DNA of 62,691 nucleotides. Origin: Rickettsiales bacterium (GTDB lineage Bacteria > Pseudomonadota > Alphaproteobacteria > Rickettsiales > Rickettsiaceae). Below, one piece after another: positions 4,453 to 11,091 of the stretch (positions are counted from its first letter, which is position 1; every line of letters begins with the position of its first letter). The stretch covers positions 1 to 62,691 of the forward strand of contig RXKF01000009.1 of assembly GCA_003963235.1 (NCBI GenBank), in the 5' to 3' direction. The notes under the pieces were generated by a model that was not told the DNA's origin, did no database searches, and worked only from the letters and a program-made list of their open reading frames with translations. A program made the translations under genes and the position numbers.

Positions 4453-4662
4453 TTAACTATTTAATTTTTTACTAGATTGATACTGAATATTTAAATATTC
4501 AGGATTCTTAGAATAATTTTTTAAGATTTCTTCTGGAGTTAAATTACCTTGTTCTACCAAATATTCAAATCTTAATAAGCTTTTTATAAATTTATGATCA
4601 AAATCATTAGCTAATCTATATAATTCAACTAGTTCAATTATTGTAATTTTACTTATTATCAT
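4453..4662 (-). CDS. small hypothetical protein, last gene of the Trp-related cluster
   Basis: 69 aa, starts 4 nt after the LysE stop. Confidence 0.5.
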   Translation of the reverse strand: MIISKITIIELVELYRLANDFDHKFIKSLLRFEYLVEQGNLTPEEILKNYSKNPEYLNIQYQSSKKLNS

Positions 4663-4666
4663 AAAA

Positions 4667-5383
4667 TTAGCTCATTATATTAGAAATAATATTAATTTCT
4701 AATAATGATCTTAAACCAAAAAAAAGAAATATTATACCTGCTACTGTCTCTATAGGTTGAATACAACTTAAAAAATTGTTACTAGTTTTTTTCATAGAAG
4801 AAGAAAAAATAGCAACTCCACAAAACCATAATAACCCTATAATAAGTATTTCTAACCAATATAGAAATTTTATATACCAAAATTCTTCATAATTAGTCAT
4901 AATAGATAGTACACTTATAAAAAATGATAATGCTAACGGATTAAGTAATTCAAGTAATAATCCTTCCATAAAATTGGAATATTTTATTATTTTTAAAATA
5001 TAACTCTCCTTAATTATATAAGTTTTAGGTAGAAATATTTTCTTCTTATATATTCTAACTAAATTGTTAAAAATAGTAACAATAAAGTTATTACAATATA
5101 AATTCTTTTTGTATTTAAAAAAAATTTTAATACTTAGATATATTAAATAAAATGAAGATAAAAACTTTAATATATTAATCAAATAAGTGTCTGAAAAAAT
5201 AGTTAATCCTGTTAAAACTATTCCAGACTGTAATCCTATACCTAACATCACCCCTAAACATGAATAAATAGCTGATTTCTTAGAATATATAAGCCCATTT
5301 TTTATTATTAATGTTATAGATGGACCTGGCATAGCAATTCCCAACAAATAAGTAATTCCAATTTCTAAAAAGTGATATTCCAT
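4667..5383 (-). CDS. LysE/RhtB family amino-acid exporter
   Basis: MPGPS, YLIYL and EGLLLELLNP motifs; about 6 hydrophobic segments. Confidence 0.85.
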   Translation of the reverse strand: MEYHFLEIGITYLLGIAMPGPSITLIIKNGLIYSKKSAIYSCLGVMLGIGLQSGIVLTGLTIFSDTYLINILKFLSSFYLIYLSIKIFFKYKKNLYCNNFIVTIFNNLVRIYKKKIFLPKTYIIKESYILKIIKYSNFMEGLLLELLNPLALSFFISVLSIMTNYEEFWYIKFLYWLEILIIGLLWFCGVAIFSSSMKKTSNNFLSCIQPIETVAGIIFLFFGLRSLLEINIISNIMS

Positions 5384-5438
5384 GAAAATAAAAAATGAAG
5401 AAATTTTACTGAATCAAACTACGTACAGAATATACTAT

Positions 5439-8604: not shown

Positions 8605-8672
8605 GCAAAGTACTAATTCTTAACTTTTATATCAAAAATGCAGATTAATATATAAACTTTTAATGCTAAAAA

Positions 8673-9842
8673 TTACTCGTCATGATGAGAGTTTGTATCT
8701 AATACACTCTCACCCATTATTTTACAGTAATAATCTTCAGAAGTATCAAAATAATCAGTTCCAACAGCCGTTTGAAAAAATGATAAAGTTTCTTCAGCTG
8801 CTTCATTTGCCTTTTTAGTACCATGATTTAAGATGTCAATTACTTCTTTAGGATGTTCTATAAAATACTTCCGCTTATCCTGTATAGGTCTTAATAGTTC
8901 ATTTATTACTTCTATTAACTTTTCTTTACATATAATATTACTAATGTCTCCATACATATATTTTTCTCCTGCCTCCTTAACCCACTGTTTATCAGGATTA
9001 AATGCTTTATGATAAATCCACAAAGGATTATTTTCTAAAGTAACAGGATTACTTTTTGAAGCAAAACTTGATTTAGGATCCGTATACATACCTTTTATTT
9101 TTTCTGAAACAATATCTGGAGAATCACTCAGAAATATAGCATTATTCAAAGATTTACTCATTTTAGGAAACACTCCTTTAGCATTAGGGTTTTTATTAAC
9201 TCCTATTAATTTATCTATATTGCCTATTACTGGAGTAACTATTGGGAATAATCCTCCATGTTGAACATGTTCCTGATCAGAAGTATTAGAAGGAACACTA
9301 AAAAACCTATAATTTAATTTTCTTGCAATATCACGTGTAAGTTCAATATGTGGAAGCTGATCTATTCCTACAGGTACTACCTGTGGTCTAAAAATTAGTA
9401 TATCTGCTGCTTGACTTATTGGATAATTAATAAAACCACATGAGAAACTTTCTTTTATATTACTTTCAACTAATTCTTGTTTAATTGTAGGATTATGCTT
9501 TATTACATTATATGGAACAAACATTCCAAGAAGCATAGTTAACTGAGCGATTGAAGGTACCTGAGACTGAATAAATATATTACTTAAAGCGGGATCAATT
9601 CCTACCGATAGATAGTCAACCGTAACCTCAAACACATTTTTCTTTAAGTTAGTTATTACATTTGCATTTTTAGTTAATGCCTGATTATCTGCTATAATAA
9701 AAAAACTATCATAGTCTTTTTGCAATTTTACACGATTTTCAAGTGAACCTACCAAATGCCCAAGATGCAATTTTCCTGTAGGGGTATCACCTGTTAACAT
9801 CCTTGGTTTAAGTAAATTTTTTATTTTCATTACATTTTTCAT
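8673..9842 (-). CDS. trpS: tryptophanyl-tRNA synthetase, TrpRS-II type
   Basis: TGDTPTGKLHLGH, YPISQAADI, VPVGIDQ, KMSKS, MYTDP. Confidence 0.95.
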   Translation of the reverse strand: MKNVMKIKNLLKPRMLTGDTPTGKLHLGHLVGSLENRVKLQKDYDSFFIIADNQALTKNANVITNLKKNVFEVTVDYLSVGIDPALSNIFIQSQVPSIAQLTMLLGMFVPYNVIKHNPTIKQELVESNIKESFSCGFINYPISQAADILIFRPQVVPVGIDQLPHIELTRDIARKLNYRFFSVPSNTSDQEHVQHGGLFPIVTPVIGNIDKLIGVNKNPNAKGVFPKMSKSLNNAIFLSDSPDIVSEKIKGMYTDPKSSFASKSNPVTLENNPLWIYHKAFNPDKQWVKEAGEKYMYGDISNIICKEKLIEVINELLRPIQDKRKYFIEHPKEVIDILNHGTKKANEAAEETLSFFQTAVGTDYFDTSEDYYCKIMGESVLDTNSHHDE

Positions 9843-10191
9843 TTGTTTTCTTGATTATAAGTACACAATAATTTATAATTTAGTTTTTATTTATTTGTCA
9901 AGTTCTCTTAGAAATAAATATTAGGTTCTTTGTATACAAATCTATTTTTGTTAAACAGAAGTATAATTAAATCATAAGAGTTTATTTAACATATATCATT
10001 ATTAAAGCTTTATATATCTCATCTGGTTTTAACTTACCAATAATACAACAAATTCATAAAATATAAACAAAAGACTAATTAAATAAGTTTTATTAAATAA
10101 GAAATAGTTTTACTATTCAAAATAAACAATACACTATGATGTATTATTCAAGTAATAAGCTATAGCTGAATTTATAAAATGAAACTTAAAA

Positions 10192-11091
10192 ATGAGTTTT
10201 ATGAGTATAAAATTGCGTTCTTATTTTACAGGTGTTACATGGTTTATATTAAGTTTGATTACTAGTTCAATAAACGATGTAATTTCAAAGTATCTAGGTC
10301 TAAGGCTTCACAGTTATGAAGTTACTTTCTTTAGATTTATGTTTGGAACAATTAGTTTAATTCCATTCATATTTTTATATGGAATGGATACCTTAAAAAC
10401 TATTAGACCTCTTGTTCATTGCATTCGGGGTGGTCTGTTATTTCTTGGAATGGTAGGTTGGACATATGGAGTAACTATAGCACCCATTACTACTGGTACT
10501 GTTATTACATTTACTATACCCATTTTTGTTTTAATTCTTGGAACCTTTTTCTTAAGTGAAAATATCATCTGGCAAAGATGGATAGTAACAATTATTACTT
10601 TTATCGGTATCGTTGTAACTCTAAATGTACATTCTCAAGATTTTAATCTTAACGTGCTTGTGTTCGTTGCTTCTGCCTTATGTTTTGCAATTCTAGATAT
10701 TTTTAATAAAAGAATTGTTATACAAGAATCAATGATTAGTATGCTTTTTTATGCTGCTACCATAACAGCTTTAATATCACTACCTTTTGCTCTTCATAAT
10801 TGGACTATACCTACAATACACGAATTAGTATTATTACTTACTCTTGGTATGAGCGGGAATTTAATACTATTTTTTACTCTTAAAGCTTTTTCTAATACGG
10901 AAGCAACAGCTCTATCTCCTTATAGATGTTTAGAATTACTATCTTCTACTATAATTGCATATATTATATTTGCCGAGGTCCCAAATAAATCAACTATTTA
11001 TGGTGCTTTTATAATAGTACCTTCAACATTCTTTATTATTTATTCAGAAAAAAGAGAGTTTGATAAGGATACTTTAAAACTCAAGAAATAA
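10192..11091 (+). CDS. sam: DMT/EamA S-adenosylmethionine uptake transporter (rickettsial Sam type)
   Basis: WFILSLITSSINDVISKYLG.RLHSYEV.FFRF, RPLVH, ENIIWQRW, ESMISMLFY and FIIYSEK match Rickettsia Sam as recalled. Confidence 0.85.
   Translation: MSFMSIKLRSYFTGVTWFILSLITSSINDVISKYLGLRLHSYEVTFFRFMFGTISLIPFIFLYGMDTLKTIRPLVHCIRGGLLFLGMVGWTYGVTIAPITTGTVITFTIPIFVLILGTFFLSENIIWQRWIVTIITFIGIVVTLNVHSQDFNLNVLVFVASALCFAILDIFNKRIVIQESMISMLFYAATITALISLPFALHNWTIPTIHELVLLLTLGMSGNLILFFTLKAFSNTEATALSPYRCLELLSSTIIAYIIFAEVPNKSTIYGAFIIVPSTFFIIYSEKREFDKDTLKLKK

Follow-up and report, generated by a model that had tools for sequence, protein, structure and literature searches.

Chuangxinmycin and indolmycin are tryptophan-derived inhibitors of tryptophanyl-tRNA synthetase (TrpRS), made by conversion of tryptophan into indolepyruvate and addition of a carbon originating from S-adenosylmethionine (SAM) (PMC5925218). 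The chuangxinmycin (cxn) cluster encodes a radical SAM methyltransferase, a transporter, and an extra TrpRS (PMC5925218). Producers of aminoacyl-tRNA synthetase inhibitors commonly hold a second copy of the enzyme, about 30% identical (PMC9437257; PMC7916415; PMC6804068). We analyzed a stretch of 62,691 nucleotides (contig C62, hereafter the window) from the 1.36-Mb genome assembly (86.8% complete) of a Rickettsiaceae bacterium, described as an intracellular freshwater bacterium. Positions 4453–11091 of the window form a block of seven genes inserted in a prophage. Three of these genes, encoding a second TrpRS, a VioA-like flavin oxidase, and a HemN-like radical SAM enzyme, form a core that recurs in unrelated bacteria. 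We favor, with a probability of roughly 0.5, the reading that this mobile cassette directs synthesis and export of an antimetabolite of tryptophan: the oxidase would generate an imine or enamine, to which the radical SAM enzyme would add a carbon, and the TrpRS would protect the producer.

The cassette and the cxn cluster have the extra TrpRS in common. In contrast, the cxn and indolmycin (ind) clusters rely on a pyridoxal phosphate-dependent aminotransferase, another type of methyltransferase, a reductase, a P450, and sulfur-carrier or oxazolinone enzymes, whereas the cassette has only two or three core genes, among them those of a flavin oxidase and a HemN-like protein. Comparison of the family scan with the accessible gene list detected none of the aminotransferase, reductase, P450, sulfur-carrier, or ind enzymes in the cassette. 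A preliminary description of the locus, made from sequence alone, had stated that both clusters carry an extra TrpRS. For indolmycin, the sources differ: Ind0 TrpRS is listed as a homologue of the cxn trpRS product (PMC5925218), while the Streptomyces griseus cluster is reported to be devoid of any detectable resistance gene (PMC6804068).

Four other described systems resemble parts of the cassette. VioA, which oxidizes L-tryptophan to the imine of indolepyruvate in the violacein pathway, is the closest solved relative of the oxidase, and its catalytic residues are kept. The oxidase differs by its score against the VioA model NF053546 (158.6 bits, the cut-off of 600 not being reached) and by its context, since vioBCDE families were found in none of the scanned open reading frames (ORFs) of the window or of related loci. 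The class C radical SAM enzymes NosN/NocN, C10P/YtkT, Jaw5, TbtI, MenK, and ChuW/HutW share with the cassette enzyme the HemN fold, the CxxxCxxC motif, and the residues that bind the second SAM in NocN. The cassette enzyme differs by the marks of its own subfamily, namely the motifs REPIGSST(Y/F)P at the N-terminus, RDW, and WANNxR, and a C-terminal extension (YxD...HY). In its accessible text, a review of class C enzymes pairs no member with a TrpRS or a tryptophan oxidase (PMC10114718). TrpRS II of Deinococcus radiodurans, likewise an additional TrpRS, belongs to the structural class of the cassette enzyme and is also tied to tryptophan modification, since it assists nitric oxide synthase (NOS) in the nitration of tryptophan (PMC9437257). 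The partner in the cassette is instead a gene-linked radical SAM enzyme, NOS was not found in the window scan, and no physical link between the partners is known. Finally, the accessory island of the Wolbachia phage WO is likewise located in a Rickettsiales prophage and carries, among metabolic genes, a DMT permease (EamA transporter) 54% identical to that of the block. The island differs by its neighboring genes, encoding a UDP-glucose dehydrogenase, a glycerol-3-phosphate transporter, and a threonine aldolase, and by the absence of tryptophan genes. The logic of synthetase-protected antimetabolite clusters is therefore known, whereas no match was found for the enzyme set, the radical SAM subfamily, or the phage-borne occurrence in Rickettsiaceae. 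No description of the gene set was found in the literature searched, which included few subscription journals and no supplements, and one may exist outside it.

The seven ORFs of the block were confirmed at the positions and in the orientations given in the preliminary description, and their families were assigned with Pfam and NCBIfam (Table 1). The AT-richness of the block was also verified, its GC content being 27.0% versus 35.9% in the remaining window. All 225 windows of equal size located on the right side of the block have higher values. Since the rest of the host genome has a GC content of 30.7%, the contrast in composition is mainly with the phage. The block had been proposed to be a self-contained cluster of seven genes. 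All seven are present, but only three are conserved elsewhere; this restriction, as well as the location of the block within a prophage, was absent from the preliminary description. The 69-residue ORF had no family above the cut-off in profile scans and no usable Atlas match, and may be foreign to the pathway. Promoter and terminator scans did not exceed chance level, and Rfam gave no match. The database form of the oxidase consists of 435 residues and starts at an ATG located at position 6746. Three short contigs of RNA run X19 fall within the oxidase and radical SAM genes; carry-over of DNA is possible, and expression is not claimed.

Table 1. Genes of the block and its surroundings in the window, and loci of other origin encoding a member of the radical SAM subfamily.
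Feature	Position	Strand	Basis or origin
Second TrpRS, non-canonical (core)	8673-9842	-	NCBIfam, nearest solved structures, tree
2Fe-2S ferredoxin (accessory)	8296-8604	-	Pfam, NCBIfam
HemN-like radical SAM enzyme, predicted class C methyltransferase-type, distinct subfamily (core)	6758-8137	-	Families, motifs, model, tree
VioA-like flavin L-amino-acid oxidase (core at most loci)	5439-6752	-	NCBIfam, VioA residue match
LysE/RhtB-family amino-acid exporter, putative product exporter (accessory)	4667-5383	-	Pfam, NCBIfam
69-residue ORF	4453-4662	-	No family above cut-off
Two-domain EamA transporter, Sam-type, divergent (accessory)	10192-11091	+	Pfam; chromosomal homologue
Left flank, phage sequence	4092-4301	-	84.5% identity to L196 7987-8199
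Right flank: 54-residue Zn-ribbon ORF (11081-11245) and 114-residue phage ORF (11245-11589)	11081-11589	-	L196 comparison
Carrier prophage: ParA, methylases, DnaB, Bet/exonuclease, SU10-like portal and adaptor, terminase	11804-58025		Profile scans
L011: IS6, radical SAM, oxidase, trpS, IS6			Rhizobium leguminosarum plasmid
L012: TrpX-like tryptophan ABC importer, oxidase, radical SAM, trpS			Nocardia asiatica
L013: radical SAM, oxidase, trpS			Salinarimonas
L095: divergent trpS, radical SAM, oxidase			Metagenome contig
L092: radical SAM and trpS only, among housekeeping genes	1616-4962		
L094: radical SAM and trpS only, among housekeeping genes	7578-10809		
L093: adenylation-AurF (AMP-binding/AurF N-oxygenase) fusion, then radical SAM	81-3354		Truncated contig of about 5 kb
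L096: radical SAM family member			1.5-kb fragment

Among the matches listed in the contig scans, eight loci other than that of the window harbored a member of the radical SAM family. In each of two of these scans, 80 loci were listed, of which 2 and 5, respectively, encoded family members, since the pattern also matches HemW proteins in general. The trpS gene adjoins the radical SAM gene at six of the eight loci and the oxidase gene does so at four. Recurrence of the core in unrelated bacteria indicates that the association of the genes is not due to chance. The co-occurrence put forward in the preliminary description was thus found for the radical SAM, TrpRS, and oxidase genes, but not for the LysE gene and, at two loci, not for the oxidase gene. 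The core was also detected in Martelella alba. In six further cases, an oxidase and a radical SAM protein were encoded by contigs of exactly equal size, one pair having consecutive accessions (another metagenome-assembled genome of Rickettsiaceae). Among 20 VioA-like proteins sampled outside the violacein pathway, such a same-size match was obtained for 6, the contigs of the others being too short for both genes (n = 4) or without match (n = 10). In Nocardia, the importer gene is located directly upstream from the oxidase gene (NF041285, E-value of 4.7e-43, below the cut-off). In L092 and L094, presumably Patescibacteria-like contigs according to their gene content, direct repeats enclose the radical SAM and trpS genes, measuring 234 nt (89% identity) in L092 and 254 nt (98% identity) in L094. 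These repeats duplicate ends of genes of the host, a histidine kinase gene in L092 and a RhuM/Fic-like gene in L094. The radical SAM family is rare, with no member in the searched sets of 119 genomes of the host family, 400 further Rhizobiales, and 250 further Nocardia. Scanning of eight loci revealed no tRNA gene. On the conjugative Rhizobium plasmid (L011, 1214-11030), the cassette is located beside an operon encoding a P450, a ferredoxin, an SDR, a prenyl synthase, and IDI, which we take to be of the gibberellin type. A link between the cassette and this operon was considered and set aside since the cassette is located between its own IS6 copies. In L096 (286-900), a gene resembling those for acyl-homoserine-lactone synthases is present directly upstream from the radical SAM gene.

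The preliminary description had singled out an extra TrpRS. The cassette enzyme is indeed a divergent copy, only 29% identical to the product of the canonical housekeeping trpS located on contig C15 of the host. In addition to the present host, Nocardia and Salinarimonas were examined in this respect, and a separate canonical TrpRS was found in all three genomes. The cassette TrpRS is nearest to the TrpRS of Chlamydia and to TrpRS II of Deinococcus, and its HLGH and KMSKS motifs are intact. In all six cassette TrpRSs, both His43 and Met129 are replaced by Gln, whereas the two residues are kept in all three housekeeping enzymes. His43 has a role in indolmycin resistance. The M129A substitution abolishes chuangxinmycin binding (PMC8814664), and another report (PMC12135181) adds nothing further on resistance. 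The TrpRSs of the other loci are 35 to 44% identical to that of the window. In the tree, non-cassette TrpRSs branch among the cassette enzymes, suggesting repeated recruitment. By analogy with the producers of synthetase inhibitors, self-protection is the likely role of the second TrpRS.

The critical residues R64, H163, K269, and Y309 of VioA (PMC10452622; PMC8609527) correspond to R62, H177, K289, and Y332 of the oxidase, in which the equivalents of Y143 and D311 are also kept. The four residues are present in 62, 56, 62, and 60 of 62 cassette-like oxidases, respectively, and the outgroup does not have the His. The oxidase family was explored with a full HMMER search, as word-indexed searches miss most of its members. 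Clustering at 50% identity divides it into about 60 VioA-like groups, and 5 of 67 scanned sequences score at the VioA level (496 to 658 bits). In a quick tree, the latter five sequences form a clade (support of 100) inside the radiation and 12 outgroup oxidases split at 96, the deeper branches being weak. Matches to the oxidase in 83 of 399 other genomes cover its N-terminal part only. Together, the VioA residues, the Nocardia importer, and the TrpRS point to tryptophan or a close derivative as the predicted substrate of the oxidase, in agreement with the tryptophan-centered function initially proposed. VioA itself accepts substituted tryptophans (PMC8609527).

The radical SAM enzyme has 69 homologues at 43 to 95% identity, followed by HemW proteins at about 30%. 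Its nearest solved relatives are HemN and NocN, and its predicted model (pLDDT of 91.8) has a TM-score of 0.76 to HemN (1olt). The CxxxCxxC motif is invariant in the subfamily. The fourth Cys of HemN, in what we take to be its CxxxCxxCxC motif, is present in none of 62 full-length members, and the HemW motif HNxxYW is likewise found in 0 of 62 members versus 47 of 51 outside proteins. The subfamily forms a clade of 70 rows separate from six HemW sequences with a support of 98, the support in a larger FastTree analysis being 0.76. These features place the enzyme outside HemN and HemW, in line with the preliminary description. The HemN model TIGR00538 was not reached (155 for a cut-off of 324.95), nor was the ChuW/HutW model TIGR04107, which gave the best NCBIfam score (243 for a cut-off of 400), and no heme-uptake gene was found beside the radical SAM gene in the window or in the related loci scanned. 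The residues Y34, Y96, R153, D196, and S225 of NocN, which are involved in binding of the second SAM (PMC12871812), correspond to Y47, Y101, R158, D201, and T230. This match does not discriminate between families since HemW shares most of these residues. Based on the HemN fold, the CxxxCxxC motif, and the second-SAM residues, the enzyme is predicted to be of the class C, C1-transferase type and to catalyze C1 transfer, with 5'-deoxyadenosine and S-adenosylhomocysteine as co-products. In class C enzymes, the methylene radical derived from SAM attacks an sp2 carbon, leading to methyl, cyclopropane, or ether products, and NosN acts on tethered indoles (PMC10114718).

In the proposed pathway, the VioA-like oxidase would convert L-tryptophan into the imine of indolepyruvate, which provides an sp2 β-carbon in its enamine or enol form. 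The SAM methylene radical would add to this carbon, and reduction with loss of S-adenosylhomocysteine would lead to β-methyl-tryptophan or to a cyclopropane (2,3-methano) analogue of tryptophan. We consider this addition to the β-carbon slightly more likely than a reaction on tryptophan itself, in which the indole ring would be methylated. The analogue would be exported by LysE and would target the canonical TrpRS of competing bacteria or of host organelles, the non-canonical TrpRS keeping translation running in the producer. The ferredoxin would supply electrons and the Sam-type importer would supply SAM in a host lacking metK. The scheme resembles the cxn pathway in outline but involves other enzymes. 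At the oxidase-free loci, indolepyruvate could be supplied by an aminotransferase of the host, or the enzyme could methylate tryptophan directly. We infer every chemical step of this pathway, including the product and self-resistance. A more specific proposal is that the HemN-like subfamily builds the cyclopropane or β-methyl analogue from the dehydro-tryptophan produced by the oxidase, possibly on TrpRS- or tRNA-bound tryptophan, in a cassette of two or three genes moving across phyla by phage, IS6, and direct repeats. We put this forward tentatively, as a possibility rather than an expectation.

Several observations weigh against production of a tryptophan antimetabolite by the cassette. The LysE, ferredoxin, and EamA genes and the 69-residue ORF had matches in none of the eight other loci. 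L092 and L094 have no adjacent oxidase gene; as their radical SAM enzymes form a single subclade nested among oxidase-bearing lineages, this probably reflects one oxidase loss. Both TrpRS and the oxidase are absent within the 5 kb of L093, which is possibly a second pathway with the same chemistry. The oxidase is about 24% identical to its VioA-family neighbors and, in view also of its score against the VioA model, its substrate could be a modified tryptophan or another aromatic amino acid. A flavin oxidase requires O2 and generates H2O2, and is therefore ill-suited to a partner containing a [4Fe-4S] cluster. No trpB was detected above the cut-off in the host, implying that the pathway would spend imported tryptophan. 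Finally, the HemW model TIGR00539 was narrowly passed by the radical SAM enzyme (213.2 for a cut-off of 205.4), and no chromosomal hemW was found in the incomplete host assembly, while the gene is present in 105 of the 119 genomes of the family. The host may have lost hemW. In three of four relatives examined, hemW adjoins xth or lies one gene away; on contig C31 (G000, 4774-5711), a pheS-like gene is located directly after xth.

The core enzymes could rely on helpers recruited from the host lineage. The ferredoxin is the sole Fer2 match in the host assembly and likely donates electrons to the radical SAM enzyme. The ferredoxin and EamA genes resemble chromosomal genes of same-genus relatives, with 64 to 74% nucleotide identity in the case of the ferredoxin, and sequence comparison assigns both to a Rickettsiaceae origin. 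The SAM transporter of rickettsiae is a protein containing two EamA domains (PMC3104491). The window transporter, putatively of the type of the rickettsial Sam protein RP076, has the same domain composition, is homologous to a conserved chromosomal gene, and is a second copy in the host, 63% identical to the chromosomal copy on contig C8. The latter was recognized by the gene order ompW-sam-proP. The identity to the copies of relatives is 65 to 70% for the window transporter versus 71 to 89% for the C8 copy, implying that the former was acquired from a different lineage of Rickettsiaceae or has diverged while carried by the phage. Its homology makes import of SAM the likely function. The need for SAM import, put forward in the preliminary description, is supported by the search for metK, which was found in none of 28 genomes of the genus, 14 of which are at least 90% complete. 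An enzyme predicted to use two SAM molecules per turnover would gain from extra import.

The block has been inserted as accessory cargo (a moron) into a Rickettsiaceae prophage. Related terminases were found in 66 viral loci, most of them 80 to 98% identical. Viral locus L196, whose ParA is 93% identical to that of the window phage, provides a single example of an empty site. Its gene corresponding to the 114-residue ORF of the right flank (45% identity) ends at position 7760, about 230 bp from the left-flank match, and about 6.9 kb of the window is missing. An independent copy was recovered in run X2 from another study, in which a 4,557-base contig covers positions 4673 to 9230 with 61 differences and a second contig joins the transporter to phage genes. 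Comparison of the window with the X2 copy, for which 38 of 39 differences in the enzyme genes were classified, revealed 14 synonymous and 9 nonsynonymous differences in the oxidase gene (pN/pS of 0.15) and 12 and 3, respectively, in the radical SAM gene (pN/pS of 0.06). These results indicate that both genes are under purifying selection.

Related viruses provided few matches to the cassette. LysE was detected once (33% identity, L279) among 145 viral loci (L196 to L340), many of which stop short of the site. The viral scan for the radical SAM enzyme gave no match, and none of 18 viral TrpRS loci contained cassette genes. Five viral contigs of 150 to 437 kb (L351, L352, L354, L355, and L358) encode TrpRS II-class enzymes with the ADNQALT motif of the window TrpRS, and no cassette gene is present beside these genes. 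At the right junction, the Zn-ribbon ORF, possibly a transposase remnant, overlaps the stop codon of the transporter gene and matches Zn-finger families below the cut-off only. Near the phage edge, 36-nt inverted repeats (1615-1650 and 2087-2122, 97% identity), separated by 436 nt and enclosing another pair, resemble a MITE-like element. A 165-nt repeat (2265-2425 and 4299-4461, 78% identity), both copies of which are matched in part by L196, is probably a phage regulatory sequence, with one copy at the left end of the cassette. Further cargo of the phage, located at 22517-24437, 40629-41717, and 58181-59461, includes a ProP-like MFS transporter, a SpoT-like HD hydrolase, a patatin-like phospholipase, and a porin, which adjoins the terminase in many related phages (76 to 98% identity). 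In L279 (138-1562), which represents a closely related phage, genes for a LysE exporter of another kind and for a GNAT acetyltransferase are located near the porin gene, hinting at other metabolic cargo in this group of phages.

Other readings of the cassette have to be weighed against the antimetabolite pathway. First, TrpRS could take part in catalysis, either by activating tryptophan (as Trp-AMP or Trp-tRNA) or by delivering it to the radical SAM enzyme, the oxidase acting before or after. This would account for the TrpRS II class of the enzyme, considering the assistance of TrpRS II to NOS, and for the composition of L092 and L094, whose radical SAM and TrpRS genes, enclosed by direct repeats, are the smallest unit seen. 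It would also fit the action of NosN on tethered indoles and the adenylation-AurF fusion of L093, in place of TrpRS and the oxidase. However, L093 is a single, truncated locus, the loci scanned contain no tRNA gene, and the divergence and interleaving of the cassette TrpRSs are better explained by several recruitments, due to a property of the class, than by co-evolution with the radical SAM enzyme. We consider a catalytic role for TrpRS rather improbable.

Second, the cassette could be a selfish module, similar to toxin-antitoxin systems or directed against phages, in which the radical SAM enzyme poisons tryptophan decoding, TrpRS is the antidote, and the oxidase and exporter limit the dose. 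The patchy distribution and mobility of the cassette, involving phage insertion, an IS6 pair, and direct repeats, would be expected for such a module, as would the two-gene form on small-genome-like contigs without other biosynthetic neighbors. However, PADLOC gave no convincing match, with one partial match to a radical SAM domain (E-value of 8.5e-9), and the tryptophan importer, the SAM importer, and the ferredoxin suggest sustained flux rather than a triggered poison. A selfish module is therefore unlikely. Third, the genes could form a resistance or detoxification island against external tryptophan analogues such as indolmycin and chuangxinmycin, combining a bypass TrpRS, modification or degradation, and export. 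Replacement of Met129 and His43, the acceptance of substituted tryptophans by VioA, the LysE-type exporter, and the reduced genomes among the carriers are all compatible with such an island. The most conserved gene is nevertheless that of the radical SAM enzyme, rather than trpS, and the Nocardia copy is accompanied by a tryptophan importer. To our knowledge, no class C enzyme inactivates an antibiotic. We regard a resistance island as quite unlikely. Finally, replacement of host heme genes by phage-borne housekeeping copies (HemN/HemW and a HemY-like oxidase) is barely credible since, despite the HemW and ChuW/HutW scores and the lack of a chromosomal hemW or ferredoxin in the host assembly, the HemW and HemN motifs are missing from a separate clade, protoporphyrinogen oxidase models match the first 80 residues of the oxidase only, the host has hemF, and linkage is to TrpRS and a tryptophan importer rather than to heme genes. 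All other readings taken together appear highly unlikely.

Indolmycin and chuangxinmycin are the only two natural TrpRS inhibitors named in the accessible parts of the literature cited here. If the antimetabolite reading is correct, a three-gene route to a third inhibitor would be new chemistry, and the radical SAM enzymes would form a new class C subfamily acting on a small amino-acid substrate. Since the core is present on a plasmid of a cultured Rhizobium and in M. alba, the proposal is easily testable. It would provide a context for many of the approximately 60 orphan VioA-like oxidases and 69 proteins labeled HemN or HemW, and the VioA of violacein synthesis would be one offshoot of the oxidase family. 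In Rickettsiaceae, which have reduced intracellular genomes, it would reveal small-molecule biosynthesis delivered by a phage, with host-derived helpers filling metabolic gaps, and thus a phage-borne antibiotic pathway in an intracellular bacterium.

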